This document shows positions 2 through 38,976 of a stretch of DNA of 64,000 bases, piece after piece. The stretch is taken from NCBI GenBank assembly GCA_030430495.1, contig JAUIKM010000017.1, forward strand, positions 8,121 to 72,120, written 5' to 3'. Source of the DNA: a bacterium. Lineage in GTDB: Bacteria; Bacteroidota; Ignavibacteria; Kapaibacteriales; UBA7675. Below the pieces are notes generated by a model. That model made no database searches, had not been told where the DNA came from, and worked only from the letters and a program-made list of their open reading frames with translations. How positions within the stretch are numbered: the stretch's first letter is position 1; each line of letters opens with the position of its first letter. A program made the position numbers and the translations under genes.

Positions 2-3000
2 GAAACAACAATCGCAGTGCCACTGGAAATTACTCGGGACAACACGTCACTCAGCTATGTGGCAGCAATGGACATCGACACCGTGCAAACCTTCAATAAC
101 ATGGCGCTTCCTCAAGACTACAGCGTCGCGGTGCTGGATGCGGACGGACAGATTGTTTACCACTCCGACAATCAAAAAAGCGGAAGTGAACACTTTCAAC
201 AGGAATGCAACTGGGACCGCGACCTGGCGGGCCTGCTGAACGCGCGCACCGCCGAAGTCATCACCATCAAATACCTCGGAAAATTTAAACGGCTGTTCAC
301 AATGCCGATTCAGGGCAGTAACTGGACGGTTGTTGCCTACTACGACGTAGAGTCCTGGATTCACGACCTCAACTTCACGGCTCTGGCGACAGCCACGGTA
401 TTCGGCCTGTTGACTTTTGTTCTGCTTATCGCCGTACTTACCCTTATAGTCACTGTGCCCGGCCTGAGTGCGACAGCCCTGTGGCCGGACCCCAACGGAA
501 CCAGCGTGTACCTCTTCCTGGCCGGGTTAATCGCATTAACATTCCTGTTCCTGCTTTGCTGCCCGTCACTATGGGATGCGGACAACACAATGGTGCTGGC
601 CGTCACTCTGCCGACCTTTGTTTTAGTGTTTGTGTATCTGAGTCTTTATCGACGGCATCACTACCACCGCGCTTTTGGCACTCTGTATTTCATGTTTACG
701 CTCTATTTTCCTGTCATTGTAATACTGCAATCAGGCGGCAGCCTGACACAGGCTCTGCTACTGGTTTTGGGTGCAATGGCGCTTGTGGGGATTTTGCTGC
801 TGAGAAGGTGGCCCGGGTTAGCAACCGTGCTGTCAGAAAAATTGGAAGTCGAGAAGGCGGGCAAGGTCGTCAAGTGGATCGTTGTTAAATTCGCCCTGAA
901 AAACACAAAAGAAGCGGCCGGAGCAATAGCGGGCGACAGCAAGGACGAACGTCAAAGCGGCAGCGGAGACGTACAAAATGGCGACAACGGAAGCAAACAC
1001 CAGAATAGCGGAATCAACATTGGCATTCAGGCCTGGCGCATTTATCTGCCCCTGGCCGGCACCCTCGTGTCAGTCGTCACTCTGTTCTGTTTCATTTATC
1101 TTGTGCTGGTCGCAGAAACCCTGCCGGCTTCAGTCGTTTTGGTCAACCTGATGGTCTGCATCCTGACGCTGACCGCCGGATACTTCATCAGCAGAACAAA
1201 CACCGTCCCAATTGCCGGCGACAGCACGGAAGAAGAAAATCTCGCAGACACGACACCACAAGGTCGGTATTACGCGAGCGATCTGGCCTATGTTAACAAA
1301 CACCGGATTATGATCTTCACAATGGCCTTGTCGATCGGTTTCATTCCGGTGTTGGTCCTTTTTGAATTGTCGCTCGATGCGGCCCTTCACTCCTCGCTGA
1401 TTGAAGGGCAACAGGACCTGGCCGGCAAGGTGTTCGACCTTCATGCCGGGGCGAAAAATTCGACGCCCCATGCCGTCAACGAGAGTTGTTACGAGGGAAC
1501 GACCGACGTGTTTTTCACCACAAAAATGACCTTCTATCCAGCAACAGACCCGACCGGAGCAAGCCTTTACCAAAGTGCTGAGAGTCGGAACGGCAACATC
1601 GCATTTGGACAAATCGTGAGAGACGTTTTCCTCCGTATGGAACTCCAGTCTTCACAGTCCAGGAAAAACGGCTATCTGTTGCAAAACATGGCGCAAGACA
1701 GCTCGAGAGTTGTTCGCTTGACCAATTACTCTCCCAAGGCGCTGTGTACTGTGCACACCGATCCCGGCGGCAATGTGGTTTACAGTGAAAGCAGCATTTT
1801 TAACTTTTCATTGTGCAACTTCGCACACACCGACCTCAAGAGTTGGATCAGACTGGTCGTGGCGATGGCGGGGCTTCTCATTGCGTATGTTATAATCTTC
1901 CATATATCCAGACACTTTTACAGGAGGGTTGTTCTTTGGGAGTTGTTCCCTATCTCACGCAGGGGTATTCCAGCGGAAACACTGTACGACGTCATTCTCC
2001 AATGTATCAAAGCAAGACAGGAGAGCCGGAACAATCACAACAACTGCAAACCGCTGTACATTGTATACCGTCCATTGACGCCTGTAGAAGATTTCAGGGA
2101 ACCGCTGATTAAATGGTTTCAGTCCAAAAGTGTTGAAACCAAAGTGACAATCAAGTCAATTGAAGACATCATCGAGCTGTCCGAGCATCCTGGTATATAT
2201 TCCGTTAAAAAATCGACTTTCCTGGTCGATGCCTTTGACCTCGAGGCGATTGTTACGGAAAAGAACCAGACCTTTCTGATCGCTGTCAACAAACTCCACA
2301 AGCTTTGCAATATTCAGATTGTCATACTGGGGAGCATCACACCGGCAAATGCTTTCCTGCCGGATGACTTCGGTTCGGAAGGCCCTTCCCAGCCAAAGAG
2401 CGACGCGGCCAAGGCGGAAGGCGCGGAGTCCAAAAAGGGACATCCCACCCCGGCAACGCTTGTCAACATTGCCAACAGCTTTGCAGACTGGGACGTGAAG
2501 TATTCGCGCGACAACCCGCTTGAAGCGTCATTTAACCCGGAAAACTCGAACGACATGGTCAGCAGTTTCAGAACCCGAAACTCGGGCAAATACGACACCT
2601 TCAGTCTGGACAAACTGGAAGTGCTGCTGCTGGAAGAATGCCGTTTTGCACCCTGGATGCGCCGCCTTGTCAATTCAATTTTAGCGGAAGCCGACAATCG
2701 CAAGTTGCTGTTCACGCGCGAACTGTTGTTGAATACGATCCTGTTACAGGCAAAACCTTTCCATCTTTCCTGCTGGCATTCGTGTTCCCGCAGCGAAAAA
2801 ATCATTCTGGCAAACCTGGCCAAAGAAGGATTGATTAACGGTAAAGACCCGGTCGACACTTTAAGTTTGTTGAACCGGCGGATAATCTCTTTTGCACCGC
2901 ACCCACAAATATTGAGCCCGAGCTTTGAGCAGTTCCTGCGCGGCAAAGACATTCAGGAGGAAGCGCAAACTCACGAACAGCAGGCCGGAAAAGGTTCCTG

Positions 3001-3178
3001 GGAGGTATTGCGATATCCTATCATTGCAATCATGCTCTTCGCGGCCGGCCTGCTTGTGGTCACACAGCAGGATTTCGTCGATACCACCCTCGCACTGAGC
3101 GCTTCGGCATCCACAATACTGGGTGTGTTTGTCAAGTGGGTCTCCGGCTTCAAAACGCCCAAGCTTCCATTCGCATAG
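2..3178 (+). CDS. Giant polytopic membrane protein, paralog A (5'-partial; the reading frame is open to the window edge). It has a Cache-like periplasmic module, ~10 TM helices, and a large cytoplasmic domain of unknown function with a C-terminal TM anchor
   Basis: No stop upstream of the first in-frame GTG at 17, so the gene continues off-window. Residues 1-130 align with residues ~690-820 of the downstream 1648-aa protein (…RRIFTMP…W T(L/V)(I/V)VY(F/Y)…), and the C-termini share WxSCSRxEK(V/I)(L/I)LANLA(R/K)(D/E)G(I/L)(V/I)NGK. A clustered run of TM helices follows the Cache-like strand motif SNWTVVAYYDVE. Confidence 0.8.
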   Translation, partial: ETTIAVPLEITRDNTSLSYVAAMDIDTVQTFNNMALPQDYSVAVLDADGQIVYHSDNQKSGSEHFQQECNWDRDLAGLLNARTAEVITIKYLGKFKRLFTMPIQGSNWTVVAYYDVESWIHDLNFTALATATVFGLLTFVLLIAVLTLIVTVPGLSATALWPDPNGTSVYLFLAGLIALTFLFLLCCPSLWDADNTMVLAVTLPTFVLVFVYLSLYRRHHYHRAFGTLYFMFTLYFPVIVILQSGGSLTQALLLVLGAMALVGILLLRRWPGLATVLSEKLEVEKAGKVVKWIVVKFALKNTKEAAGAIAGDSKDERQSGSGDVQNGDNGSKHQNSGINIGIQAWRIYLPLAGTLVSVVTLFCFIYLVLVAETLPASVVLVNLMVCILTLTAGYFISRTNTVPIAGDSTEEENLADTTPQGRYYASDLAYVNKHRIMIFTMALSIGFIPVLVLFELSLDAALHSSLIEGQQDLAGKVFDLHAGAKNSTPHAVNESCYEGTTDVFFTTKMTFYPATDPTGASLYQSAESRNGNIAFGQIVRDVFLRMELQSSQSRKNGYLLQNMAQDSSRVVRLTNYSPKALCTVHTDPGGNVVYSESSIFNFSLCNFAHTDLKSWIRLVVAMAGLLIAYVIIFHISRHFYRRVVLWELFPISRRGIPAETLYDVILQCIKARQESRNNHNNCKPLYIVYRPLTPVEDFREPLIKWFQSKSVETKVTIKSIEDIIELSEHPGIYSVKKSTFLVDAFDLEAIVTEKNQTFLIAVNKLHKLCNIQIVILGSITPANAFLPDDFGSEGPSQPKSDAAKAEGAESKKGHPTPATLVNIANSFADWDVKYSRDNPLEASFNPENSNDMVSSFRTRNSGKYDTFSLDKLEVLLLEECRFAPWMRRLVNSILAEADNRKLLFTRELLLNTILLQAKPFHLSCWHSCSRSEKIILANLAKEGLINGKDPVDTLSLLNRRIISFAPHPQILSPSFEQFLRGKDIQEEAQTHEQQAGKGSWEVLRYPIIAIMLFAAGLLVVTQQDFVDTTLALSASASTILGVFVKWVSGFKTPKLPFA

Positions 3179-3323
3179 ATGTCGGCAGCCCGGCGCAAAA
3201 GCTGCGGCCCGTTTCTCGGCAGGCATTGCGGCCGGGTCCATTCGAAGGGTATCTACTCAATACGGGTCAGGTGTTTGCGGTTGGGTGCCGGCGCCTCTGA
3301 AACACCCAGCCTTCCAGGCGTCG

Positions 3324-3358
3324 AAAACGCTGAATTCATCATTCAGCGTTTTTTTGTT
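3324..3358 (+). terminator. Rho-independent terminator candidate downstream of paralog A
   Basis: Perfect 12-bp inverted repeat AAAACGCTGAAT-TCATC-ATTCAGCGTTTT followed by TTTTTGTTT. Lies 145 bp after the stop at 3178. Confidence 0.6.
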
Positions 3359-3418
3359 TATTCGAGAACCGATGTCGCATTCATTTGCTCAGAGATGGAC
3401 TCATCAACTTTTGGCTTC

Positions 3419-3444
3419 TCTCTGCGTGACAAACAAGAGAAAGC
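3419..3444 (-). repeat. Partial copy of the dispersed intergenic repeat (core …CTTTCTCTTGTTTGTCACGCAGAG on the minus strand)
   Basis: Reverse complement matches the CTTTTG(T/C)TTGTCACGCAG core of the copies at 18538-18556 and 11791-11806. Confidence 0.5.
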
Positions 3445-3637
3445 ACCGCAGGAAACAGCACCGGGCTTTCCTGAACGCCGCCGCCCCGCCCCATTGAATT
3501 CCCCCGCCATTTTTTGTAATATGGTCCTTTATCTACTGCGAGCGATATTCCACAGATCAACCATTGCAGAGAGCGCTCCCCCCGCCGCACCCACAATCCC
3601 CGCGGCGGCATTCTTTCACTGACAGGTCATCCCGATC

Positions 3638-6600
3638 ATGCCTACTCCAAATGCCCCGCGCAAAAAACTCCGCGTTCTGTCTTTCCTGATGATCGTCGCC
3701 ATCGCGATGGCCGCGGGCTACTATTTTTCGTTCTATACGCAAAAACGGGAGTACGTCGTCGACAGAAATTTCCGGCGTCTGGGCGTGATTTCCGAGCAGA
3801 TCGAAGCGCGCATGGACGGCGTGCACAACATCCTGGAAAATGCGGTCGAGAACATCGGCATCGATTCCACGCGCCGCGATTCCCTTATTGAGGTAGTAAG
3901 CCGGATAGAAAAAAATATTGAGGAACAGAAAACCGCGATCATTAACAGCCAATCCGACAAGGAAACAGTCAGTCAGGTAATTGAAGAATCGATTAAAAGC
4001 ATCCAGACCGGCCGCGCCAGGAGCGACGCAAAATTCACCGATATCCGGCGGCAGGAAACGAGTCAAAAGATCAGCCGCCAGGCGCTGCAACTAAACCAGG
4101 AGCTGGCGCGCGCACAGGACGCCGCACCTCGGGCGGAAGAAACAGACAACTCCAATGTCAACGCCCGCCAACTGGAAGATCTGCAGAATAAACTCGGCGA
4201 AGCACAGGCCGCCCTGGAATACATTAACTACCGCGAACGCCTGGCCGCAGCCATCGGCATTATTCCCTTTGCCACCCTTGAGTATGCCAATACCGTTTCA
4301 TCTGCCAATCATACACAGGCCGGAGACGGCGCGGCAGATGGAGGTGAAGCGGAACAGAATGAAAAGACTGATATTCTACAGCCGTTCAGCAGCAGCATCG
4401 AAAATGTTGAGTTAATCGGCCAGAAGCTCTACTTGTCCTACCTCAACAATGCCGGCAACGGTTCCGACCTCATCATCAGGGTGCGTATTGATCTGGAAGA
4501 GATGATCGCGCAGCAGATCGGCGATGTGATTTTTGACGACGTCTTTCTGGCAAAGTCCGGCGGCGAAGTGATCTACCAGCACAACAAACACCGCGGCAAC
4601 GTGCGCAGTTTTGACAAGGTGCAGGACTTAAACAACGATGAAACATCGTTTGAATTCGGCCAGCTGATAAAGTCGGGCGGCCTTGTCACGGCACAGCTTT
4701 CCGGGCGCGAAAACGTTCTGTTTGCACGACCCTTGCAGATGGAAATCGGCACGCGCGACAGCACAAATTTCAACTGGGTTCTCGTCGGGGCGGTGCCGTC
4801 GAATACGTTACTGAGCGAGAGCATGGCGCTGCCGACCAACACAATTCTCGTCTTTGTGTTTGTGGCGGCGCTGCTGATTCTGGTCTGGCCCCTGTTAAAC
4901 ATTCTCGGCGCGGGCACGTTCACGCGCCTGCGCAAGTTGGATCTGGCTTTTCTTGGACTTTCCGCGACGCTTGGCTCCGCCCTGATTGCCCTTTTGATTG
5001 TCGATCAGTATCAACTGACCAATCTGCGCAAAACGATGGACAATCAGCTGAAAGCCACGGCCGAAGAAGCGCACAACAACTTCCACACTGAGCTGCATCA
5101 GGCATACAGTCAGTTGCGTTTCCTGGCCGACGCCGTCGCGCCCGCGCTCGACTCAACTTACATCGAATGGGAAGACAACCCCTTGACCATTGTCACGCGA
5201 CGCTCGATCGACGACACACGCACGGTGCGCCTGACACTCGAAGGCCAGCTGCCGCGCACGCACAACATGTTTAACTTTGTGCGCGGCGACACGTCGGACA
5301 CGGCCGCCCCCGGCGGCTGGGACTACGTCAATTTTGACCGCGTCTTTTTTGCCGATCCATCGGGCGACATAAAGGTCAAGCTGGCCGCAGAGTCCGCCGC
5401 AACGCCCTTTCTTAACGTCAGCTCGCGCGACTACTTCCGCGACGTGCAGCAGCGGAACATGCTGGTCCTGCACGAAGGCGACCACGATCACGAGAGCGAC
5501 GACCACGGAGCACAACACGGACACGGCAAGGAGCGGTTGAATAAACACATCGACACGGTTGAGTTCGCGCTGAGTCAACACCACTCCTGGGCCAGCGGCG
5601 CCTACGAAACAACGATGGCAATTCCGGTTAATCCGGATACAACGCGCGAGGCGACCTGGCTGGCCGGCATGGACATCGGCACACTGGCCAGTTTTGACAA
5701 ACCGCTGCTGCCGCCGACGTTTAATTTCGTGCTGGTGGATGAGCATGGCAACGTGATCTATCACACCCGGCCGGAGCGCAGCGGCTTCGAGAATTTCCTG
5801 ACGGAATGCGACGGGAATCAACGTCTGGCGGCAACACTGGCGGGGCGGCGCAGCGATTGGTTAAGCAGCACCTACTGGGGTGAAAACAGGCGCATTTTTA
5901 CCATGCCGCTGCACGACACGCCCTGGACGCTGATAGTGTATTTCAGCGAGGAAGCCGTCCTGGACGGCAGCAATATCGTTATGCTGACGAGCACGCTGGG
6001 ACTGTACGGCGTTAACTTATTGCTGTTGTTGATTCTGGTCGTTCTCGGCTTTTCCAGCAGCAGCGTGCAGCTCGACTGGCTGTGGCCGAGCCTGCTGGAA
6101 TACCGCACCTATCGCAACCTGAGTCTTATTTACCTGGGATTTCTGATTTTCTACGCCGTCACTTTAACGCAGGATGTGCGCTTTGATCACGTGATGGTTG
6201 CGGCGCTGCTGCTGCCCGTGTTTTTTGTCTTCATAACCTACTTTTCGCTTAAACGCCAGGAGAAGTTAAACTTTCGCCTGGCGCTGATTATTCTGCCGTT
6301 TGCGGGATTCTATCCGCTCGCGGCGGCGGTGCAGTTGTACAACAGCCAGTTAATTCACTCGCCTGCCTGGAAATTTGTGCTGCCCCTCTTGTTGGTCAGC
6401 GTGTTGCCGGCGGCAATTGTCGGCTTGCGTAAGCTGATGAACCGCGCGAAGGGCATCAGGCGGGACTGGCGACGCGAGCTGCTGTTTAACGTCGTGACGT
6501 ATCACCTTCTCATTCTTGTTTTGCAGACAAGGTATCAGTTGTGGGACAACAAGATCGAGTTCTTCTATCACCTGATTCTGATTGCGATGACGGCCTACGC

Positions 6601-8584
6601 GCTCTACCTGTTCCAGTCAAAGCGCAATTATCTGGCGCGCGACCAGTATCTGCACGAATTGTACCGCCACCGCTCCGGCCAGGTGGCGGGCGTCCCGACC
6701 GCGCGTTTTTTCCGGCGCACCTATCGGGCATTTCTCATTATCCTGGTGATGACGACCGGCATCCTGCCGGTGATTGCCTATTTCATTCTTGCGAACGAGG
6801 CCACGTTCAATCTCCTGATTAAACACTCGCAGATTACCATGGCGCACCAGGTGCTCGAGCGCGAACACGAAGCCGCCGAGCGCGTAGCGCAGTTAAACAC
6901 CAATGAAGCGGACTACATCTACAACCGTCTGAAGCACGACGAACGAGGCATGTACCACGGCCCCTTCTTTGAATCCGGATTGCTCTGCACGGCCAGGCCA
7001 GTGCCCGCGGGCATCCGCGATACATTCGGCTTCGCCGGTATAATGGACACGGTTGTGATGCACGATCCGGAAAAAGACCCGGTCGGCAGCATTCTGCCGC
7101 GCCTGTTAAGCAGGCTGAGTCTGGCTGCCGAAAACAAGGTTGAACTGCGGCGTTATCTCGGCACCAGAGCGGCCGACAGCATCTGGAATACCGGCAGGTC
7201 GCTGGACGGCAGCAAAGCAGCCATGATTCACAAACGCCTGAACGGACCCGACAATGTCCTGATGCTCAGCTCCGGCGGAGTGCCGCATTTGAGAGCCGAC
7301 GGCTTCCGATTTGAGGAGACATCCATTTTTGTCGGCTTGTTCGTCGCCAGCCTGGCTTGCATTATCCTGTTGTACTGGGCCAGCTACAAGTTTGGCGAGC
7401 AGGTGCTGCTGAGTCGTTTTGCCAATCCGCGCTCCGGCCGCGGCACACACATCGAAATCCCGAAAGACGCGCCGCTGTTTATTATCAGCCGTCCTTTAAT
7501 TGCCGTGGACGAAATTATCGAGAACAGCACGTTCGACACGATTGATCCCGAATGGAAAGACCGTGTGATGTTCCTGGACCGCGCCGAACTGCTCGCTTTG
7601 ACAAACGACAAGATTGAAGCTATGGCGGAGACGGGCGTGCCGCTCTGCACCATCGAAGCATTCGACCTGGATCCGGAGTATTCACAAGCCAACATCCAGT
7701 TTATGCTCCGTGTTAACAAACTCAAGGTCGCGGCGGACTGGCAGGTAATTATTGTCGGCAGCGTCGACCCGACGATCGCCTTTCAGGATCAGTCCGTCAC
7801 GGCGGCCGGTGGCGGCAAAGCGGCGGATGCAGGCGCTGAGGGCGACGACAAAAAAGCTGTGCCTGGAGTCGACTCCAAAGACAACCTGGCGGCAGCGCGC
7901 GCCTACTCCACATGGCAAACCGCGTTTTACCAGGAAATGCACGATTCACAAATGTATCGCGCCGACCTGGAGGTAATAGTCGACGACCACAATCTCGACA
8001 GCGAACATCTGAAACAGTGCATCCGGATTATTGCACATGAGTTTCACATGACGCGCTGGTTGCGCCACCGCGGACGCAATCTGATGCGCCGCATCTGCCG
8101 CGATTACATGGGCTTTGACGAAGCGGCGCTGCGCCGCCAGATCATGCTCGAAGCCGAGCCGCTCTACCAGGCCATCTGGAATTCCTGCTCACGCGGTGAA
8201 AAAGTCCTGCTCGCCAACCTGGCGCGCGACGGCATCGTCAACGGTAAAAATAAACGCGGCGTGTACAGTCTGTTAAACAAACAGCTCATGATGCTTGTGC
8301 CGGACCCCAAACTGATCAACGACAGTTTCCGCGAGTACCTGCAGCGCGACGACATTCAACAGGAAGCCGATGCGCTGACGGAAAAATCCTCGCGTACGTC
8401 GTGGGAAAACCTGCGCACGCCTTTGATCGTTCTGCTCGCCGCCGGCGGCGCATTCCTGATCGTCACACAGCACGAAATCATCGACATGACAACCGCGATA
8501 ATTTCAGCTGTGACGGTGCTCGTGCCCGGCATCATGAAAGCGCTGGACTTTTTCCGCAATGGACGTGTGGCCAGCGGCGGCTGA
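3638..8584 (+). CDS. Giant polytopic membrane protein, paralog B (1648 aa). It has an N-terminal TM, a coiled-coil/Cache-like periplasmic module 1, two TMs, a Cache-like periplasmic module 2, ~8 TM helices, a ~620-aa cytoplasmic module of unknown function and a C-terminal TM
   Basis: ATG start with signal-anchor VLSFLMIVAIAMAAGYYF. Two segments end in the Cache-like strand motif (FNWVLVGAVPSNTLL and TPWTLIVYFSEEAVL), each followed by TM helices. No His-kinase, GGDEF/EAL, MCP or ATPase motifs recognisable. The C-terminal ~120 aa are conserved with paralog A. Confidence 0.85.
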   Translation: MPTPNAPRKKLRVLSFLMIVAIAMAAGYYFSFYTQKREYVVDRNFRRLGVISEQIEARMDGVHNILENAVENIGIDSTRRDSLIEVVSRIEKNIEEQKTAIINSQSDKETVSQVIEESIKSIQTGRARSDAKFTDIRRQETSQKISRQALQLNQELARAQDAAPRAEETDNSNVNARQLEDLQNKLGEAQAALEYINYRERLAAAIGIIPFATLEYANTVSSANHTQAGDGAADGGEAEQNEKTDILQPFSSSIENVELIGQKLYLSYLNNAGNGSDLIIRVRIDLEEMIAQQIGDVIFDDVFLAKSGGEVIYQHNKHRGNVRSFDKVQDLNNDETSFEFGQLIKSGGLVTAQLSGRENVLFARPLQMEIGTRDSTNFNWVLVGAVPSNTLLSESMALPTNTILVFVFVAALLILVWPLLNILGAGTFTRLRKLDLAFLGLSATLGSALIALLIVDQYQLTNLRKTMDNQLKATAEEAHNNFHTELHQAYSQLRFLADAVAPALDSTYIEWEDNPLTIVTRRSIDDTRTVRLTLEGQLPRTHNMFNFVRGDTSDTAAPGGWDYVNFDRVFFADPSGDIKVKLAAESAATPFLNVSSRDYFRDVQQRNMLVLHEGDHDHESDDHGAQHGHGKERLNKHIDTVEFALSQHHSWASGAYETTMAIPVNPDTTREATWLAGMDIGTLASFDKPLLPPTFNFVLVDEHGNVIYHTRPERSGFENFLTECDGNQRLAATLAGRRSDWLSSTYWGENRRIFTMPLHDTPWTLIVYFSEEAVLDGSNIVMLTSTLGLYGVNLLLLLILVVLGFSSSSVQLDWLWPSLLEYRTYRNLSLIYLGFLIFYAVTLTQDVRFDHVMVAALLLPVFFVFITYFSLKRQEKLNFRLALIILPFAGFYPLAAAVQLYNSQLIHSPAWKFVLPLLLVSVLPAAIVGLRKLMNRAKGIRRDWRRELLFNVVTYHLLILVLQTRYQLWDNKIEFFYHLILIAMTAYALYLFQSKRNYLARDQYLHELYRHRSGQVAGVPTARFFRRTYRAFLIILVMTTGILPVIAYFILANEATFNLLIKHSQITMAHQVLEREHEAAERVAQLNTNEADYIYNRLKHDERGMYHGPFFESGLLCTARPVPAGIRDTFGFAGIMDTVVMHDPEKDPVGSILPRLLSRLSLAAENKVELRRYLGTRAADSIWNTGRSLDGSKAAMIHKRLNGPDNVLMLSSGGVPHLRADGFRFEETSIFVGLFVASLACIILLYWASYKFGEQVLLSRFANPRSGRGTHIEIPKDAPLFIISRPLIAVDEIIENSTFDTIDPEWKDRVMFLDRAELLALTNDKIEAMAETGVPLCTIEAFDLDPEYSQANIQFMLRVNKLKVAADWQVIIVGSVDPTIAFQDQSVTAAGGGKAADAGAEGDDKKAVPGVDSKDNLAAARAYSTWQTAFYQEMHDSQMYRADLEVIVDDHNLDSEHLKQCIRIIAHEFHMTRWLRHRGRNLMRRICRDYMGFDEAALRRQIMLEAEPLYQAIWNSCSRGEKVLLANLARDGIVNGKNKRGVYSLLNKQLMMLVPDPKLINDSFREYLQRDDIQQEADALTEKSSRTSWENLRTPLIVLLAAGGAFLIVTQHEIIDMTTAIISAVTVLVPGIMKALDFFRNGRVASGG

Positions 8585-9754: not shown

Positions 9755-11533
9755 TTATGCCCCGGCGTCCGTCGTCGGCAGAGTGAACCAGATTTGAGTA
9801 TCGGAGTGATGCAGATGCACGCGCTGCGTTGAGCCCGCGCTGAGCTGCAATTCCCGCTCGAAGAAATAGAGGGCCTGGCCCCAGTGAACGTCGTCGCCGT
9901 CGGGGCCGCTGTTGAGTGTGAGGCCCTCGCCCAGGTCGAGCTCAAACCAGAACATGACGCCGTCGCAGGCGCCGCTTTCCAGCGGAGAAAATTCCAGATC
10001 GTGACGATGTCCGGCAGCCACGGCAGGCGAAGCGGGCGGCCGATAAAAATCGAGGGCCAGCGCTTCCACGACGGGGCTGAGCAGCCGGCAGGGCTCGCGG
10101 CGCGCGTCGATACCGACGTATTCCCAGGGAATGCGGAAGGCGTCAAAAGCCGAGAGATCAAAACCTTCGATCTGCGCAACGGGATTGACGAGGCGCAGTT
10201 TGGGGGCGCGAACAAGCGCGCAGTAAATCCGCGCCGCGGACGGAATCAGGCGCACATTCTCCGACGCAAGCTTGCCGGCGGCATGGCGCATGGTCGGCAG
10301 AATGCCTTCGCCCAGCAGCCCGGCATCGACGACTTCGGCCAGGATGACGTCGGCCGGACGCGGCAATTCGTGCCCGACGCGCAGACCGGTCGACTTGGCT
10401 TCGAACAACTGAATTTTATCGCTCATGGAATTGTCAGCCAGAACGCGGCGGGTGACGGGCGCAATCAGCGAGTTCATCTCGCAGGCGACGACGTCGCCGG
10501 CGCCGGCGCGCACGGCCATCATGGCGAGCAGCCCGCTGCCGCTGCCGATATCCAGCACCAGATCGTCCGGGCCGACGGCCTGCCGGATTGCGGCGTCAAA
10601 GCGACTGTTGCGCGCCGTATCGCTGAGCAGCTGCAGATGCCAGGCGGGGAAATTGCGGCGACGCGCGCGGCGCAGATTGCGGTCGGCCAGAAAATCGTCG
10701 GGATCGCGCGCCAGAATCTCCTCAAAAGCCGCAATCGACTCATCAACGCGATTCAGCATAAAAAGCGCATTGGCGCGGCGGCGCAGCGCGTCGCTGTTGG
10801 CGGGGTCGACCGCAACGGCCTGTTCATAACTTTCCAGCGCCGCCTGGTAGTCGCCGTTGTCCTCGTGCGCCGTGCCCAGGGAAACGTGCGCCAGCGACTC
10901 TTTCGGTTTGTCTTTCACGAGTGCGCTCAGCAGGTCGATCGCCGCGTTGACTTCGCCGTTCATACACAGAACATTGCCGATGTTGACGCGCGCGTGCACA
11001 TCGCCCGGATCGACGTTCAGCACTTCTTCGAACAGGGCGCGCGCTTCGTCCAGCCGCCCCTGCATGCGCCGCACATTGCCCAGGTTTACGAGCAGCGGCG
11101 CTTGCCTGGGCCGCAGTTTGCGCGCCGCCTCGTACTCCTGTGCCGCTTCATCAAGCCTTCCCTGCTGCGCCAGCACGTTGCCGAGGTTGAACAGATTGCC
11201 GAAATCGTCGGCTTTGATGTCGATCGCAGCGCGGTAGGCCCTGATCGACGCGTCGAACTCACTGCGTGCGTAGAGCACGTTGCCGAGCAGTCCGTGGGCA
11301 AAACCGTTGTGCGGATCCGCCTTGACGGCTCGCGCCAGCAGTTTGTGCGCCAGGTCCATGCTGCCGCGCTGATAGTGGATGGAACCGAGGTTTGCCAGGG
11401 TGTCGGCGTGTTTGGGGTTGGTCTGCAGCACGCGCTGATACGACTTGATCGCCGCATCAAATTTGCCCTGCAACTGACTGCGGAGAGCTTCCTGGAACAG
11501 CTGCTGCGCCCTGCCCGTGAGTATTTTGGCCAT
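9755..11533 (-). CDS. TPR-repeat protein fused to a PRMT-like (protein arginine N-methyltransferase family) class I SAM-dependent methyltransferase domain
   Basis: N-terminal ~300 aa contain many 34-aa TPR repeats (…A(L/I)xxYxxALxxxPxxxxAxxNLG…). The C-terminal half has motif I VLDIGSGSGLLAMMAVRAGA, the acidic post-I residue VVACEMNS, a double-E loop ADVILAEVVDAGLLGEGIL, and a THW-like loop VHWGQALYFF. Order and spacing are as in PRMT1/Hmt1. Confidence 0.75.
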   Translation of the reverse strand: MAKILTGRAQQLFQEALRSQLQGKFDAAIKSYQRVLQTNPKHADTLANLGSIHYQRGSMDLAHKLLARAVKADPHNGFAHGLLGNVLYARSEFDASIRAYRAAIDIKADDFGNLFNLGNVLAQQGRLDEAAQEYEAARKLRPRQAPLLVNLGNVRRMQGRLDEARALFEEVLNVDPGDVHARVNIGNVLCMNGEVNAAIDLLSALVKDKPKESLAHVSLGTAHEDNGDYQAALESYEQAVAVDPANSDALRRRANALFMLNRVDESIAAFEEILARDPDDFLADRNLRRARRRNFPAWHLQLLSDTARNSRFDAAIRQAVGPDDLVLDIGSGSGLLAMMAVRAGAGDVVACEMNSLIAPVTRRVLADNSMSDKIQLFEAKSTGLRVGHELPRPADVILAEVVDAGLLGEGILPTMRHAAGKLASENVRLIPSAARIYCALVRAPKLRLVNPVAQIEGFDLSAFDAFRIPWEYVGIDARREPCRLLSPVVEALALDFYRPPASPAVAAGHRHDLEFSPLESGACDGVMFWFELDLGEGLTLNSGPDGDDVHWGQALYFFERELQLSAGSTQRVHLHHSDTQIWFTLPTTDAGA

Positions 11534-27320: not shown

Positions 27321-27450
27321 CCGCACCGGCGGAACGTCTGAACCCGCGTCTGTATTCCACGGCCGGGTCCCGGTGTGCGGCCGGCGCGGACACCGAATAA
27401 AACGACAGGGGCTGCGAGACACACAGCCCGCTTGTGTTTTATGTGATTGT

Positions 27451-30400
27451 ATGTTTATTCAGGCAGCCCGGATATTGAGAACGTCAGACACATACCATCA
27501 CGGACCGTTGGTTGCGCGGGCACTGCTCCTGTGCGGCCTGATTCTCCTGTTCGCCATTGCGAATATGCGCGCTCAGGATGAACGCGACTACCTTGGCCGC
27601 GAGTTTTTCCTATGTTTTCCACCGAATATTCACAAAGCGGGCGGACAGTCGCCTCCCGACGACAGCCTCTACATTTACATCAGCTCCGACAGGCCGACGA
27701 CCGGACGGATTGAGTTCAGCGACCGCGAGGGCAATCGATCCGAGCGGCGCTTTAGCATCGAAGATCCCAATCTGGCGCATGTGGAGAGTTTTGCATACAG
27801 CGACTATGAACTGCAGGGCTACAACCTCAACGGCCTGCTCGACAATCCCGACTCACAGAACGAAACGGTTTCGCGCCAGGTTTTTTACGTGGTGGCCGAC
27901 CGCGACATCAGCGTGTACGGTCTCAACCACGCCGGCGCCTCCAGTGATGGTTTTATGGCCTTGCCGGCCGATGTGCTGGACGGATACTATGTGATTCCGG
28001 CCTTTCCGTCGGACACGCGCATTCTCGACAATCGCCCGGCGCCTTCGAGCACGCCCTCGCAGTTTGCCGTCGTTGCGTTGAATGACAACACGGATATTCT
28101 GATCCAAACGAACGCTCCCGTCCCGGTGGCAAACAAAGAGCCAATCCAGATCACGCTGCAGCGCGGCCAATGTTATCTGGTGCAGTCGCGCATTTCCGTC
28201 AGCGAACCGTCGAACGACCTGACGGGCAGCGTTGTGATCAGCGACAAACCCCTGGCCGTATTTGCCGGACACCAGCGCAGCCAGGTGCCGGGCGGAGATA
28301 CTCGGAACGCCGCGACGCAGGATCATATTATTCAGCAGGTAGCCCCCGTTTCGACCTGGGGCAAACAGTTCAGCTTGGCGCCACTGATCGTGACGGGCGA
28401 CGATGACGGCGTCGGCAATGACATTGTCCAGATAGTGGCGGCGCAGGCCCAGACGCGCATTTACATTAACGGCGCGGAAAAAGCTCTGCTGGATGCGGGG
28501 CAGAGCCTGCTGGAACCGATCAGCGGGCCGCTTTTCATCAGTTCGGACGAGCCGATTCACGTGACGCATCTGCGCCACTCTTCTTCGCTGACAGGCGCCG
28601 GTACGCCGCGATTGGGCGATCCCTTTGCCCTGTCGATCACGCCGAAGGAACAGTGGCTGGACAAATACACCTTTTCGACGGCACAGGCATTTTCCAACCT
28701 GAACCGCGAAGACCGCCTGGTATTTGAGTACCAATATCTGATGATCACGCTGCCGACCGGCACGCCGATCGATCTTGCGCTGGACGGCGTGGCCGTCAGC
28801 GACGAAAACTTCACGGTAGCGCCGTTCGGCGACTTTCTCTACGCGAATATTCCGGTGACGACGGGACGGCACGTGCTGCAATCGACCGTTCCATTCGGTG
28901 CGCATGTTTACGGTTTCGGCGAGGCGGACTCATACGCCTTCCCTGCCGGCGCGGCACACACGCCGATCAATCTGGAGTGCAGCGCCGACGCCGGACCGGA
29001 CATAACGGTCTGCCGCGGCGACACGGTAATGTTGAATGCCGTCAGTATCGGTTTTGACGAGCCGACCTTCCGCTGGTCCCCGGCGGAAGACCTGATCAGT
29101 TCGCCTTTTGCCAAACAGCTGCGGCTGCGGGCGATGCGAACCACCTGGTACAAACTGCTGGTACGCGACGAACGCGGCTGCCGCGCAGAAGACTCCGTGC
29201 TGGTCACCGTGACGGAGAAACCGCAAATCAACGCCGGGTCGGATCACGTGATCTGTCCCGGCGAGAGTGTGCAACTGGGATTTGAGGACCCGGGCGTACC
29301 GATCACCCGCGTGCGCTGGACGCCGGCGGACAAGGTCGATGATCCCGCCTCTCCCGCGCCGATCGCAACACCCGGTCAGGCGACCGGATTTATCGTCGAA
29401 GTCGAAACCGCATCCGGCTGCGTCGTTTTTGACACCGTGGTCGTCAACGTGCGCGAACGCCCCGTGGTCGACGCCGGTCCCGACGTCGACATATGCGAGG
29501 GCAGCAGCGCCGAACTGACGGCTACCGGCGGCGTCAGCTATGAGTGGCGTCCCGCGGACGGCCTCAACCGAACCAACATCTTCAATCCCATTGCCAAACC
29601 AGAAAAATCCACCAAGTATTTTGTCAGGGTAACGGACGCTTTCGGCTGCGTCAATGAGGATTCGGTCACGGTCTTTGTGAGCGAATGCCGGCCCTGCGAG
29701 TCGATTTCCGGCATCATCAACGAATATGCTTCGGTTGTGGCGCTGGATTATCCCACGCGGCGCGTGCGCGTCGTCGACGGTTCGGTGTTTGCACCGGGCG
29801 ATCTGGCGATGATCGTGCAGATGCAGGGTGCGGAGATCAACGTTGAGCAGGCGGAAAGCTACGGCCGGATTGAAAATCCGATGTCGGCCGGCGCATACGA
29901 ACTGGTGCGCATAGACAGCATTAGCCTGAACTTGCTCAGCCTCAATCGACCGATTCACAATCAATACGATCCCGCCGGCAAGGTGCAGGTGGTGAAAATC
30001 CCCGAATACGACCACGTTACGGTGGTGGACCGCGTGTTCGCGCGCCCCTGGGACGGCAATGTGGGCGGTGTGGTGGCCATGGCGGCCAACTGCCTGATTG
30101 TGGAAGACACTATTTCTGTGGATACGAGCGGCTTCCGCGGCGGGCGTTATGAAGTGCAATCAGGTTGCCGCTTTGAACCCAATACAACCGCCTGGGTGTC
30201 GGATCAGCTTTGTCGCTTTTCCTATCGCGGCGAAGGCACGGCGAGCTACGGAGTCCCGCCGAATGTCTACGGTCGCGGCGCACCGGCCAACGGCGGCGGC
30301 GGCGGCAACAACCACAATGCGGGCGGCGGCGGCGGCGGCAACGGCGGAGCGGGCGGCAAGGGCGGCAACGGCTTCCGCAACTTCGCCAACTGGGATCAGG

Positions 30401-31758
30401 CCGGCGGCGTGGGCGGGTATCCCCTGTCCAAAATTGCGGCAGCCGATACTTCGGGCCGGCTGTTCATGGGCGGCGGCGGCGGAGCGGGACACGTGAACCA
30501 CACCAACGGTTCCGGCGGTGCGCGCGGCGGCGGCATCGTGTACATCCGCGCGGGCACGCTGCGCAGCACGCCCAATTCGCTGATAACGGCGCGCGGACAG
30601 CACGCGGCAAACGACACTTCGACGCTCAATCCCGACGGATGCGGCGGCGGCGGAGCAGGCGGAACGATTATGCTGCACGTGGACCAGATTCTGGAGGATG
30701 TCGAGCTCGACGTACGCGGCGGCAACGGCGGCACGCGCCTCGCCGAGCAGCAGACAACATCCGGTCCCGGCGGCGGCGGCGGCGGCGGTCTTGTTCTCCT
30801 GTCGCTGAACATCGAAACCAATGACTTCGAAATTTTCACACATACGGCCGGCGGCGCCGCGGGCGAATTGGGTCTGGCCTCCGGCAACAACTACGGCGCG
30901 GCGCCGGGACTGCACGGCGCGATCATCGATTCGCTGAAAGGACGCGGCGTCTACTCCCAGGCAATCTTCGGTCCCTGCCGCGGGTGTTATCCGGTGCGCA
31001 AGGCGACGACGGGAGGCTGCGGCAGCGTCGAGTTCGACGTAGCCGACGCCAATTTTGAGATTGTCAGCATCGAACTGGACGCCGACAGCGACAATGTGTC
31101 GATGGAGACCGAGGAGCTGAATTCGCTGCGCGTCGGCGTGGAAATCGAACTGGACGATCCGCTTCGCGCGGGCAATTATGTGGTCTATGGGCGCAACAGC
31201 AACGGCAAAGAGTCGATTTTCCGCGGCACGATCCTGCCGGAGCCTCCTATGCCGGAGTTGAGTTTCCGCAACGACTCGCTCTTCATCAATTCGAATATTT
31301 TGCCGCGGATCGACTCGATACAGTGGTACAGCGAGGAGCGCGGCGCTTTGATTCAACGCACGGCGGATCGCCTGCCGCTGGTCGATTCCGGCGTGTACTG
31401 GGTGCAGGTCTGGAACGAGGAAGGGTGCTCGGCATTTTCGGAGCGCTACAACTTCAATGCAATCAGCAGTGTGATGTTCCCGCCGCTGGAGCGGCCGCAG
31501 ATCGAACTGAATCTCTTTCCGAATCCGGCGGACAACCTGTTGACAATTCGTTGTCGCACGCGTTTGCTGCAAGGCCTGGAAGTGCAGATAAGCGACGTAT
31601 TCGGGCGCATCGTCTGGCGACGCGCGCTGCCGGACTACCAATCGCTGCATGAAATTGAAGTGGATCTGGACCGTCTGGCGTTGGCGCCCGGGGGATATTC
31701 GGCCGGCATTGTAGCACCCGGCTACAGGACATCTCAGATGTTTATTAAACAACCCTGA
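27451..31758 (+). CDS. Giant secreted T9SS cargo protein (adhesin-like). N-terminal beta-rich domain, at least 3 tandem Cys-framed Ig-like repeats, a Gly-rich beta-solenoid-like segment, and a C-terminal T9SS sorting domain
   Basis: Signal-like N-terminus (…LLLCGLILLFAIANMRAQ). Repeats (I/V)C(R/P/E)G(D/E/S)(T/S)V.L…(F/V/Y)(R/E)W.PA(E/D)…GC…DSV.V.V at 28980-29680. Gly-rich region 30250-30850. C-terminal …ELNLFPNPADNLLTI…VQISDVFGRIVWRR… matches the T9SS CTD pattern. The start at ATG 27451 is uncertain; an upstream in-frame start at 27373 is possible. Confidence 0.8.
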   Translation: MFIQAARILRTSDTYHHGPLVARALLLCGLILLFAIANMRAQDERDYLGREFFLCFPPNIHKAGGQSPPDDSLYIYISSDRPTTGRIEFSDREGNRSERRFSIEDPNLAHVESFAYSDYELQGYNLNGLLDNPDSQNETVSRQVFYVVADRDISVYGLNHAGASSDGFMALPADVLDGYYVIPAFPSDTRILDNRPAPSSTPSQFAVVALNDNTDILIQTNAPVPVANKEPIQITLQRGQCYLVQSRISVSEPSNDLTGSVVISDKPLAVFAGHQRSQVPGGDTRNAATQDHIIQQVAPVSTWGKQFSLAPLIVTGDDDGVGNDIVQIVAAQAQTRIYINGAEKALLDAGQSLLEPISGPLFISSDEPIHVTHLRHSSSLTGAGTPRLGDPFALSITPKEQWLDKYTFSTAQAFSNLNREDRLVFEYQYLMITLPTGTPIDLALDGVAVSDENFTVAPFGDFLYANIPVTTGRHVLQSTVPFGAHVYGFGEADSYAFPAGAAHTPINLECSADAGPDITVCRGDTVMLNAVSIGFDEPTFRWSPAEDLISSPFAKQLRLRAMRTTWYKLLVRDERGCRAEDSVLVTVTEKPQINAGSDHVICPGESVQLGFEDPGVPITRVRWTPADKVDDPASPAPIATPGQATGFIVEVETASGCVVFDTVVVNVRERPVVDAGPDVDICEGSSAELTATGGVSYEWRPADGLNRTNIFNPIAKPEKSTKYFVRVTDAFGCVNEDSVTVFVSECRPCESISGIINEYASVVALDYPTRRVRVVDGSVFAPGDLAMIVQMQGAEINVEQAESYGRIENPMSAGAYELVRIDSISLNLLSLNRPIHNQYDPAGKVQVVKIPEYDHVTVVDRVFARPWDGNVGGVVAMAANCLIVEDTISVDTSGFRGGRYEVQSGCRFEPNTTAWVSDQLCRFSYRGEGTASYGVPPNVYGRGAPANGGGGGNNHNAGGGGGGNGGAGGKGGNGFRNFANWDQAGGVGGYPLSKIAAADTSGRLFMGGGGGAGHVNHTNGSGGARGGGIVYIRAGTLRSTPNSLITARGQHAANDTSTLNPDGCGGGGAGGTIMLHVDQILEDVELDVRGGNGGTRLAEQQTTSGPGGGGGGGLVLLSLNIETNDFEIFTHTAGGAAGELGLASGNNYGAAPGLHGAIIDSLKGRGVYSQAIFGPCRGCYPVRKATTGGCGSVEFDVADANFEIVSIELDADSDNVSMETEELNSLRVGVEIELDDPLRAGNYVVYGRNSNGKESIFRGTILPEPPMPELSFRNDSLFINSNILPRIDSIQWYSEERGALIQRTADRLPLVDSGVYWVQVWNEEGCSAFSERYNFNAISSVMFPPLERPQIELNLFPNPADNLLTIRCRTRLLQGLEVQISDVFGRIVWRRALPDYQSLHEIEVDLDRLALAPGGYSAGIVAPGYRTSQMFIKQP

Positions 31759-36702: not shown

Positions 36703-38976
36703 ATGGCGGACTCCAAACCTACCCTGTTTCAAAAACTGCGCGAATCCGAGCTGAGAAGCGAACGCGTCCAAGGCGGAATTCGCCATGCTCCCTGGCTGCG
36801 GCTGGTAATTATTGCCGCCACCGTTCTGGTTTGCATGCTCAGCTTTCCACTCGTGACCGAATACAAATTTTCGGTCGCCGTCGGATCCGAATGGTCGCGT
36901 GACACCATCAAGGCCGAACGCGCCTTCACAATCTTCAAACCCGAGGATCAGTACCAGGCCGAACTGCAGCAGGCCCGCGACAGCACCCGCCCGGTTTTTA
37001 CCATTCGCGAAGACGTTCCTGAACGGGCGCACCGCTTCCTTGATGCTTTCCAACAGCCTTTTTTGTTTACCCCCGAGTTGTCAGCCGACACGCTCGAGCA
37101 GATTTCAGTCCTTTCGCGGTCGGCGATCGACCGCCTTATGGAGCTGACGCTTGCGGAGCGGCGCGACGTTCTCAATCGCGTAGCGCGCAAGCTGAACGAG
37201 TTCCACAACCGCATTTACGACTCCGGCCTGATCGACCGCGAAACCGGCGAGATTGCCACGCGCCAGATTGCGATCCAGGTGAATGCCGTCACGGAAAAAC
37301 TGGAGTTTACTTCATCGCTGATCGACTTTACGGAGTACGGCCGGCGCATGGAAAAACTCAACAGCGAGCTCTCGCCCATCGAACAGATGGTGGCCAACGA
37401 CCTGACGCCGCAGCTGATGCGCCCCAACCTGATCTACTCCCCGGAAATCACGCGTCAGAATCGCTACTTCGCCGAACAATCGGTGCTCAAATCCACCGGC
37501 ATTGTCGACGCCGGCGAAGTCATTGTGGCGCCCGGTCAGGTTGTCACGCACGATATTCTGGCGCGGCTGACGGCGATGACGGCGCGCGAGGGCGAACGCA
37601 GCTACTGGCAGATCCTGCTGGGCAATCTGGTGCACGTGCTGCTCATTTTCTCGATGCTGCTGCTGTTTTTGAACCGCATCCGCCCGCGCATTTTTTCCGA
37701 CAACTACCAGTTCCTTGGACTGTGTTGTTGTCTGATCCTGATCTCGGTACTGGCGCGCATCAGCGTGGTGGAATTCTCACAGGTGCCGGCGGAGTTCCTG
37801 ATCGTCGTACCGGCCTGCTCCATGCTCGTGGCAATTCTCTACGATTCAAGGACGGCGTTCTATACGACCATTACCATGACGCTGCTGCTGGCCGGCACGC
37901 GCGGCAACGACTACGAGACGGCCCTGGTGGTGCTTATCGGCAGCACCTATGCCGCCTATACCGTGCGCGATCTGCGCAGCCGCACGCAGGTGTTCAAAGC
38001 CATGGCGTCGATTTTTATCGGCTACGGCCTGGCGATTACCGCCATCGGCATGCAGCACTCCACGCCGCTCAGCCTGATCCTCGAAAAAATGGCATATGCG
38101 ACGATCAACGCCATTTTCTCACCGGTTTTAACGCTGGGCCTGCTGTTTGTCATCGAGCGCATTTTCAATATTGCCTCGGATCTGCGCCTGCTCGAATTCG
38201 ACAACCAGAACCACCCGCTGCTGGTGCAGCTGGCGGATCGGGCGCCGGGCACCTACCAGCACACGCGTACGGTGGCCCATCTGGCCGAAAGCGCGGCCCG
38301 CGCCGTGGATGCAAATCCGATCCTGGCCCGCGTCGGCACCTATTTCCACGACATCGGCAAACTGGCCAAGTCCGAGTACTTTGTGGAAAATCAGATCGGC
38401 ATCAACAACAAACACGACCGCCTGACGCCGCAGAAATCGGCCAATATCATCAAGGATCACGTCAAGGCCGGAATGGAAATGGCGCGCGAACACCGGCTGC
38501 CGCGCCGCATCCTTGAATTTATCCCGATGCACCACGGCACCATGCTGATCAAACACTTCTACGCCAAGGCGGTGGAAGAAGCCCAGGCCAAAGGGCAAAC
38601 CGTCAACGAGGAAAATTTCCGCTATCCCGGTCCGCTGCCCAACAGCAAAGAAACCGGCATCGTCATGCTGGCCGACACGGTCGAAGCGCTCTCGCGCACG
38701 CTCGACGGCAGCCGCGAAGAGCTGTCGCGCGCCATCGATAAAATCATCAAGGAACGCCTGCTGGACGGCCAGCTCGACAAGAGCGACCTGTCGCTGCGCG
38801 ACCTGAACAAAATCAAGGACAGTTTTGTGCGCAATCTGGTCGGCATGTCCCACCAGCGCATCAAATACAAAACGCTGCCGGGCGAAGAAGACGACGATGC
38901 GCCTCCGGCGACCGCCGCCGGCAAATCCGCCGAAGGCGGCAAGCCGTCCACGTCCGCACCGCAAACCGGAGCCTGA
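36703..38976 (+). CDS. 7TM receptor with intracellular HD hydrolase (PgpH/YqfF-like HDIG phosphohydrolase)
   Basis: N-terminal TM plus extracellular domain, a 7TM block, and an HDIG domain …GTYQHTRTVAHLAESAAR…GTYFHDIGKL…HH…. Lies 22 bp after kbl. Confidence 0.88.
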   Translation: MADSKPTLFQKLRESELRSERVQGGIRHAPWLRLVIIAATVLVCMLSFPLVTEYKFSVAVGSEWSRDTIKAERAFTIFKPEDQYQAELQQARDSTRPVFTIREDVPERAHRFLDAFQQPFLFTPELSADTLEQISVLSRSAIDRLMELTLAERRDVLNRVARKLNEFHNRIYDSGLIDRETGEIATRQIAIQVNAVTEKLEFTSSLIDFTEYGRRMEKLNSELSPIEQMVANDLTPQLMRPNLIYSPEITRQNRYFAEQSVLKSTGIVDAGEVIVAPGQVVTHDILARLTAMTAREGERSYWQILLGNLVHVLLIFSMLLLFLNRIRPRIFSDNYQFLGLCCCLILISVLARISVVEFSQVPAEFLIVVPACSMLVAILYDSRTAFYTTITMTLLLAGTRGNDYETALVVLIGSTYAAYTVRDLRSRTQVFKAMASIFIGYGLAITAIGMQHSTPLSLILEKMAYATINAIFSPVLTLGLLFVIERIFNIASDLRLLEFDNQNHPLLVQLADRAPGTYQHTRTVAHLAESAARAVDANPILARVGTYFHDIGKLAKSEYFVENQIGINNKHDRLTPQKSANIIKDHVKAGMEMAREHRLPRRILEFIPMHHGTMLIKHFYAKAVEEAQAKGQTVNEENFRYPGPLPNSKETGIVMLADTVEALSRTLDGSREELSRAIDKIIKERLLDGQLDKSDLSLRDLNKIKDSFVRNLVGMSHQRIKYKTLPGEEDDDAPPATAAGKSAEGGKPSTSAPQTGA

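Follow-up and report, generated by a model that had tools for sequence, protein, structure and literature searches.

STAND NTPases of the NB-ARC, NACHT, and MalT type are built, in this order, from an alpha/beta NTPase domain, a helical bundle, and a winged helix, with C-terminal repeats as the sensor and an effector domain as the output. AAA+ proteins of the initiator clade (DnaA, Hda, and ORC/Cdc6) consist of an AAA+ core and a lid, with a helix-turn-helix or winged helix at the C terminus. In Cache transmembrane receptors, such as chemoreceptors, histidine kinases, and cyclases, a periplasmic Cache region is flanked by transmembrane helices, and the output is a kinase, MCP, GGDEF, or HD domain. 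One-component sensors of the ToxR/CadC type have an N-terminal OmpR-type winged helix at the inner membrane face and a single transmembrane helix, and in KAP P-loop NTPases transmembrane helices are, by definition, inserted inside the NTPase domain. Here we describe two giant paralogs, designated A and B, that are encoded in a 64,000-nucleotide stretch of contig JAUIKM010000017.1 from a bacterium of the Kapaibacteriales (the window, to which all coordinates refer). An initial annotation had singled out a conserved C-terminal block in both proteins (2630-3178 in A and 8060-8584 in B). We consider it probable (roughly 0.6) that this block forms the C terminus of a cytoplasmic module with three parts, an NTPase-like domain, a helical bundle, and a winged helix, which closes in a transmembrane hairpin, and that the proteins belong to a family of Cache-like sensors.

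The layout of the proteins, as derived from hydropathy, Pfam matches, and pairwise coverage, begins at the N terminus with a transmembrane helix, an extracytoplasmic region of about 350 amino acids, a transmembrane pair, and a dCache_1-like region. These are followed by a polytopic transmembrane block, a loop of about 170 amino acids, a further transmembrane helix, the NTPase-like domain, a low-complexity linker, the helical bundle, the winged helix, and the transmembrane hairpin. The same transmembrane layout was found in all relatives examined. The matches to dCache_1 (Pfam PF02743) scored 22.5 bits for B, 16.7 for A, and 33 to 43 for relatives, all below the gathering score of 45 bits.

This layout combines traits of the described systems without coinciding with any of them. 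The dCache_1-like periplasmic region flanked by transmembrane helices is shared with Cache receptors. However, the family lacks a kinase, MCP, GGDEF, or HD output and instead has the polytopic transmembrane block and the pseudo-NTPase, winged helix, and hairpin. As in ToxR and CadC, a winged helix lies at the inner membrane face of a one-component sensor, but here it is C-terminal, follows the NTPase-like domain, and has a membrane anchor on either side, and any binding to DNA is putative. A P-loop-type domain is integrated into a membrane protein, as in KAP NTPases, but the transmembrane helices flank the NTPase-like domain, and there was no Pfam KAP match. Unlike in STAND proteins, the sensor is an N-terminal periplasmic Cache-like domain, and the module stands between transmembrane segments, ends in a transmembrane hairpin, and has no effector domain. 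In contrast to initiator AAA+ proteins, the family proteins are embedded in the membrane, mostly lack a P-loop, and have no replication context. Pfam-type domain scans detected no enzymatic output domain anywhere in the protein.

Both block ranges are in frame with the open reading frames (ORFs) of A and B. Paralog A continues beyond the window edge, and its full-length form is protein P0001 (1722 amino acids), the last 400 amino acids of which are identical to A. Protein P0002 is an orthologue of B. When exactly the two block ranges were compared with BLASTP, they aligned over 152 amino acids without gaps (52/152 identities [34%], 64% positives, E = 1e-40), which bears out the statement in the initial annotation that the two tails align clearly. 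All of the strings quoted there are present: the block string reads WNSCSRGEKVLLANLARDGIVNGK in B (from 8177 onward) and WHSCSRSEKIILANLAKEGLINGK in A (from 2774 onward), and DIQQEA/DIQEEA and SWENLRTP/SWEVLRYP were both found in the paralogs. The terminal membrane anchor is also present, but it comprises two hydrophobic helices rather than the one described (residues 1596-1611 and 1618-1636 of B, from hydropathy and AlphaFold2). The further statement that the rest of the cytoplasmic regions has diverged was correct in that identity upstream of the block is only about 22% and the alignment is gapped; nevertheless, homology continues for about 230 amino acids upstream, and the C-terminal ~380 amino acids of A and B align with 103/383 identities (27%; E = 1e-42). 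A second alignable region comprises the Cache-like domain and the first transmembrane helices (E = 3e-30).

An exhaustive hidden Markov model (HMM) search of protein cluster representatives with a two-sequence profile of the A and B C termini returned 2501 protein clusters at E ≤ 1e-3, of which 1263 also passed E ≤ 1e-10, with clusters counted at 50% identity. The family matches map to profile positions ~225 to 415. Thus, the block has homologues in more than 1200 clusters beyond the two copies from which it was recognized. No Pfam, NCBIfam, or PADLOC model covers the C-terminal module, so that it is not an already named domain either. When 74 members were scanned singly, no Pfam family was matched by more than four of them, and the most frequent match was MarR_2 (4/74, E ≥ 0.005). 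PDB sequence searches found no relatives of solved structure. The names on record are few, namely "cache domain-containing protein" in Calditrichota and KSB1 and "hypothetical protein" in Thermoanaerobaculia.

A and B are adjacent and on the same strand, and their similarity might be ascribed to a mere recent duplication of neighboring genes that has no wider meaning. The family-wide profile search refutes this reading, as does database protein P0003, which is nearer to B (561 bits) than A is (423 bits). The two paralogs share their architecture at only about 25% identity, and there was no tandem pair of family genes in any of 73 metagenome loci. We therefore assign a recent duplication practically no weight; judged from their sequences, A and B are old paralogs.

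The metagenome loci came from a scan with a nine-sequence subset alignment, which yielded 80 loci, in 73 of which the family gene was recovered by ORF calling. In every complete gene of the 73-locus set the module closes an ORF of 1300 to 1525 amino acids, and in long relatives with complete genes the block is the extreme C terminus of proteins of 1250 to 1900 amino acids. The initial annotation had raised the possibility that the block occurs elsewhere as a stand-alone protein, and no such form was found among the short matches of the profile and metagenome searches. Short matches were rejected as candidates because they either lie at the end of a contig or come from full-length genes that frameshifts have broken up in error-prone assemblies. 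In the frameshifted genes, the upstream parts are present in other reading frames. No conserved neighbor gene was found in the 73 loci; the largest neighbor cluster occurred in 7 of them, which were closely related loci. Therefore, the family protein appears to be self-contained. In two related long-read metagenome contigs (L002, 9000-13302, and L005, 1543-3957) SpvB and TcdB_toxin_mid (Tc-toxin/Rhs-like) genes lie downstream of a frameshift-fragmented family gene, in the same orientation.

Other search strategies recovered far less of the family. A word-indexed homologue search returned no matches with either the 394-amino-acid C terminus or a 20-sequence alignment and only nine short matches with a core profile free of transmembrane segments. 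This search missed even a near-identical protein for queries with transmembrane or low-complexity stretches, probably because matches to common hydrophobic words took up all of its 8000 candidate slots. A genome scan with the two-sequence alignment found only a sister metagenome-assembled genome (MAG), the search patterns being too specific.

The block is the most widely conserved stretch of B. Among 84 long relatives, the widely conserved stretches were residues ~300-500 (which include the second and third transmembrane helices), ~650-880 (the end of the Cache-like region plus the fourth and fifth transmembrane helices), and 1475-1648, which is the block. The block was matched in 83 to 84 of the 84 relatives and the NTPase-like region in only 3 to 7. 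In a comparison of B with its orthologue in the sister MAG (L001; 89% nucleotide identity), the ratio of nonsynonymous to synonymous substitution rates (dN/dS) was 0.032 for the winged helix, 0.037 for the block, 0.087 for the NTPase-like part, and 0.244 for the first periplasmic region, compared with 0.165 for the whole gene. The block is under strong purifying selection. Together with the confidence of its predicted fold (see below), these results agree with the proposal in the initial annotation that it is a functional module and not a spacer.

The fold of the cytoplasmic part was predicted with AlphaFold2 in two models. The first covered the last 394 amino acids of B with a 20-sequence alignment and had a predicted local distance difference test score (pLDDT) of 75 and a predicted template modeling score of 0.72. 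It comprises a five-stranded alpha/beta domain (26-176 of the fragment) with a disordered linker (130-152), a helical bundle (183-262), a winged helix (265-314), a long helix that turns into the first membrane helix (317-359), and a second membrane helix (364-386). The second model, of a 131-amino-acid core of B with 74 sequences, had a pLDDT of 90.4. Its topology is helix-helix-helix(H1)-helix(H3)-hairpin-helix, with helices at 53-65, 73-81, and 96-102 and strands at 85-87 and 91-93 (pLDDT 93 to 98), and it contains the three-helix core and beta-hairpin wing by which a winged-helix domain is recognized. In B, helix 1 of the predicted winged helix is SRGEKVLLANLARD, and the putative recognition helix KRGVYSLLN is followed by the beta-hairpin wing and the helix DSFREYL. 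Thus, the block is predicted to begin with the two final helices of the bundle and to continue through the winged helix and a linker helix to the transmembrane hairpin.

Foldseek searches of the PDB with the 394-amino-acid model gave DnaA (3r8f) as the best match (E = 1.9e-4), as well as Hda, RuvB, clamp loaders (RFC), ORC, the plant NLRs RPP1 and Roq1, and MalT. All matches listed for the core model were winged-helix proteins (MarR, GntR, ScpB, CodY, and PrfA) or the winged-helix domains of RPP1, ORC/Cdc6, a bacterial STAND protein, and NLRP3, with root mean square deviations (rmsd) of ~4 Å over 70 to 90 columns. None of these was significant, and no named winged-helix family was matched significantly by Foldseek (best E = 0.48) or by the MarR_2 model.

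At the level of predicted structure, the order of an alpha/beta NTPase-like domain, a helical bundle, and a winged helix is that of STAND NTPases, and the Foldseek matches to RPP1, Roq1, MalT, and NLRP3 extend over the three parts. RPP1 and Roq1 aligned to the 394-amino-acid model over ~355 columns with TM-scores of 0.38 to 0.39 and an rmsd of 6.6 Å. In addition, a minority of relatives retain a Walker A motif (GPPxSGKS) and a Walker B motif with a second acidic residue (D-[H/G]-F-[E/D]). However, neither A nor B has this pair of motifs, and the family had no significant sequence or profile match to NB-ARC, NACHT, or MalT-type models. When the family profile was aligned with Escherichia coli MalT (residues 1-440) by hhalign, Walker A, Walker B, and the strand after them were paired in the same order, at a nonsignificant E of 0.18 and a probability of 0.3. 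The helical bundle has a family motif, EC...P.LQ.IG, which appears in B as HEFHMTRWLRHRG, and the end of the winged helix has another, (L/I)MN(E/D)SFR.F. The string EC.G.P.L..IG may correspond to the STAND GxP/GLPL motif, and LMNESFR may sit where the MHD motif would be. The best Foldseek matches were to initiator-clade AAA+ proteins, which share the core, the lid, and the C-terminal helix-turn-helix or winged helix, but TM-scores were low (0.3), the rmsd was 10 to 11 Å, and matches to family models were below thresholds. The only matches of this kind were weak ones of the NCBIfam Hda model, with a cutoff of 194.8, to P0006 (E = 0.0011, 18.6 bits) and P0007 (E = 0.079, 12.5 bits), both of which have intact P-loops. 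The cytoplasmic part thus resembles AAA+/STAND modules in its predicted fold only. In the way it would work, the module is closest to STAND and AAA+ initiator modules, and membership in either group is not established.

To the initial annotation, the Cys/Ser/Arg-containing block, with the string WxSCSRxEK (here the motif W..CS..EK), looked like a catalytic or interaction motif. Residue conservation was evaluated in 184 nonidentical modules. The motif Trp is 99% conserved, the Cys 90% (replaced by Leu in 7, Thr in 5, and Ser in 3), the Ser ~70%, and the Glu 84% (Gln in 15%); the Arg is not conserved. The most invariant residues of the module are this Trp, Ala61, Leu77, and Phe96 (98 to 99%), the Trp before the hairpin (100%), and the membrane-embedded Thr-Gln pair that closes the first membrane helix (Thr 95%, Gln 99%). 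In both AlphaFold2 models, the motif Trp ends the preceding helix and Cys-Ser forms a two-residue turn before helix 1 of the winged helix, with the Ser at the N-cap and the Glu at N3, spaced as in a capping box. Thus, W..CS..EK is probably structural, with the Trp in the core, a Ser..Glu capping box, and the Cys as a buried or turn residue.

A catalytic or redox function, in which the Cys-Ser-Arg block is an active site or a thiol switch, would be consistent with the high conservation of the Cys and with a second Cys in the upstream EC motif, which is found in about 60% of the family, including A. However, the Cys is replaceable, the Arg is not conserved, and none of the 184 modules has a conserved His that accompanies the Cys or a conserved Asp partner; B lacks the upstream Cys and reads HEF there. 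Furthermore, the motif lies at a helix-turn-helix junction of the predicted winged helix, whereas an active site would be expected in a fold that forms a pocket. We therefore consider a catalytic or redox Cys very improbable. The catalytic half of the earlier suggestion was not borne out, and the interaction half fits better: the motif is best regarded as a fold-and-interface signature and not as an active site.

Nucleotide-binding motifs have been lost from most of the family. At the P-loop site, P0006 reads LVLGPPASGKSK, B reads IISRPLIAVD, and A reads IVYRPLTPVE. A canonical Walker A motif (G....GK[ST]) is present in 19 of 87 long members and absent from the other 78%, which include A and B. 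The Walker B consensus of the family is hhhIDHF(E/D), and B has Glu in the Asp column. The Walker B Asp was retained in all 19 members with Walker A compared with 20 of the 68 without it. This pattern suggests that the NTPase is real in a minority of the family and degenerate in all other members, A and B among them. Crude parsimony on an unweighted pair group method with arithmetic mean (UPGMA) tree required at least six changes in the presence of Walker A. In most members, the conserved function of the C-terminal module would therefore be independent of nucleotide hydrolysis.

One potential output is that of a membrane-tethered transcription factor, in which the winged helix, like that of ToxR or CadC, binds DNA from its place at the membrane, with access to DNA or affinity for it under the control of the Cache sensor. 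The top matches to the core model include the DNA-binding winged helices of MarR, GntR, CodY, and PrfA, and the weak MarR_2 matches point in the same direction. DnaA and ORC/Cdc6, the best matches to the whole module, also end in DNA-binding domains, and the recognition helix and wing have a mean net charge of +5.3 ± 2.5 in the family. However, none of the structural matches is significant, and the positive charge is reduced in B (+3) and nil in A (0) while the rest of the module is strongly constrained. The winged helix is tethered on both sides about 30 residues from the bilayer, where its basic face may equally bind acidic lipids. Moreover, in STAND proteins the winged-helix domain has a regulatory role and no DNA-binding activity. 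We consider a transcription factor unlikely.

The preferred reading, a switch module at the end of a Cache sensor, starts from the predicted layout, in which the transmembrane helix before the NTPase-like domain and the hairpin after the winged helix anchor the module in the membrane at either end. This two-sided anchoring and the conservation of the transmembrane helices around the Cache-like region led us to propose intramembrane signal transfer. Ligand-induced movement of these helices would be passed within the membrane to the C-terminal hairpin and from the hairpin to the winged helix. The winged helix would be the switch or interaction element of the module, and the output would be its position relative to the NTPase-like domain or its basic face. 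In most members signal transfer would need no nucleotide hydrolysis. The basic surface of the recognition helix and wing may bind an anionic partner, such as DNA or acidic lipid, or another protein.

It might also be that the hairpin itself is the effector, with its Thr-Gln pair and the Pro of helix b forming or gating a pore when the module oligomerizes, as in NLR-like systems. The near-invariance of Thr-Gln and of the Trp before the hairpin, the lack of an enzymatic output domain, and the STAND-like predicted fold would be in keeping with such a pore. However, the nucleotide-binding motifs by which STAND proteins are driven to oligomerize are missing from most members, PADLOC gave no anti-phage defense match and there was no defense-island context, and the gene in the window is surrounded by housekeeping-type genes. 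A membrane effector is accordingly improbable, and an anti-phage defense system was rejected because there were no PADLOC matches.

Several points weigh against the switch-module reading. The folds were assigned from predicted structures; in Foldseek, no single winged-helix match is significant, and the best match to the whole module reaches only E = 1.9e-4 with low TM-scores. Pfam, NCBIfam, PADLOC, PDB sequence searches, and hhalign provided no sequence or profile link to AAA+, STAND, or winged-helix families, and the hhalign comparisons with E. coli MalT and with the AAA+ protein RtcR (E = 0.23) were both nonsignificant. The coupling of the sensor helices to the C-terminal hairpin is something that we infer, as is the output function of the module.

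Table 1. Coordinates of A, B, and their features in the window
Feature	Position	Strand	Basis or remark
Paralog A	2..3178	+	5'-truncated at window edge; at least 1058 aa in window
Degenerate Walker A position of A	2066..2089	+	YRPLTPVE; alignments
Predicted winged-helix domain of A	2783..2938	+	equivalent of that of B; WHSCSRSEK at 2774-2800
C-terminal transmembrane hairpin of A	3020..3142	+	Thr-Gln at 3062-3067
Terminator-like hairpin	3323..3353	+	13 pairs and T run; between A and B, ~145 nt past the stop of A
Paralog B	3638..8584	+	complete ORF, 1648 aa
Transmembrane segments of B	before residue 1250 and after residue 1591; none inside 1255-1430	+	hydropathy, AlphaFold2
Predicted NTPase-like alpha/beta domain of B	7475..7927	+	AlphaFold2; AAA+/STAND-core-like strand-helix pattern; Foldseek
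Degenerate Walker A position of B	7487..7510	+	SRPLIAVD where relatives have GPPxSGKS; alignments
Walker-B-like strand of B	7646..7672	+	CTIEAFDLD; alignments
Predicted helical bundle of B	7946..8185	+	between NTPase-like domain and winged helix; AlphaFold2
WNSCSRGEK motif of B	8177..8203	+	models and residue conservation
Predicted winged-helix domain of B	8186..8347	+	AlphaFold2 pLDDT 90-97; nonsignificant Foldseek matches
Predicted acidic linker helix of B	8348..8422	+	ends in 100%-conserved Trp of SWENLRTP; continues into membrane helix
C-terminal transmembrane hairpin of B	8423..8557	+	helix a 8423-8470, helix b 8489-8545; near-invariant Thr-Gln at 8465-8470, end of helix a; hydropathy, AlphaFold2, conservation

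The terminator-like hairpin between A and B suggests that the two genes are transcribed separately. A 147-amino-acid ORF (3179-3622) fills the intergenic region; its translation is of low complexity and it spans the terminator hairpin, and it is therefore probably not a gene.

Paralog A is missing from the syntenic position in L001, the closest genome (window 2-3324 versus L001 1-5922). Synteny starts at window position 3325, two nucleotides after the start of the hairpin stem, and nucleotide identity is 89% from there onward. The GC content of A is 0.514 (0.62 at third codon positions), compared with 0.562 (0.71) for B and 0.592 for the rest of the window. The absence of A at the syntenic site and its lower GC content suggest that A was acquired or relocated separately, without local duplication. 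At the syntenic place of A, L001 encodes an IgGFc_binding protein with a sorting tail of the type IX secretion system (T9SS). The large IgGFc_binding surface proteins at window 27373-31758 and L001 2807-5890 are paralogs, one of which takes the place of paralog A in L001. T9SS C-terminal sorting domains (Por_Secre_tail) are encoded in L001 and at window 53918-57685 and point to an organism of the Fibrobacterota-Chlorobiota-Bacteroidota (FCB) group. The title of the L001 record (contig CAYULF010000021.1), "uncultured Hyphomicrobiales bacterium," looks wrong given these Por_Secre_tail proteins.

Within its periplasmic Cache-like region, B has a His/Asp-rich insert, HEGDHDHESDDHGAQHGHG, at residues 612-630 (window 5471-5527), which is retained in variable form in the L001 orthologue and may be a metal-binding loop. 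Convergent with B, on the minus strand at 9755-11533, is a gene for a 592-amino-acid protein with many TPR repeats and a PrmA/PRMT-like methyltransferase C-terminal part. A further large sensor-type membrane protein, of a known kind with 7TMR-HDED, 7TM-7TMR_HD, and HD domains, is encoded at 36703-38976.

A search of the literature on membrane receptors that combine Cache with STAND or other NTPase domains found nothing relevant. Within the literature searched, a membrane-embedded, Cache-coupled, and largely nucleotide-independent AAA+/STAND-like module with an unnamed winged-helix and hairpin end is undescribed. More tentatively, and at odds that we put well short of even, these proteins could be a widespread group of undescribed one-component receptors in uncultured FCB-group bacteria, Acidobacteriota, and soil bacteria. 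Such receptors would respond to extracellular ligands, and a polytopic membrane domain and the hairpin would link their periplasmic Cache sensor to a STAND/NLR-like module that has repeatedly lost nucleotide binding and is mechanically switched, with the winged helix as the output surface.

The module represents an uncharacterized domain family with over 1200 clusters at 50% identity. No other part is as conserved in these very large sensor-like membrane proteins, which are labeled only as "hypothetical" or "cache domain-containing." Even if the AAA+/STAND-like reading fails, it is still a well-delimited domain of unknown function. If that reading is true, the module would exemplify a membrane-integrated switch that is coupled to an extracellular Cache sensor, and it would be a clear target for a new Pfam entry. 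The family would then also provide a natural series in which nucleotide binding was lost several times while the winged helix remained constrained, which would be useful for studying a nucleotide-independent role of the winged helix.

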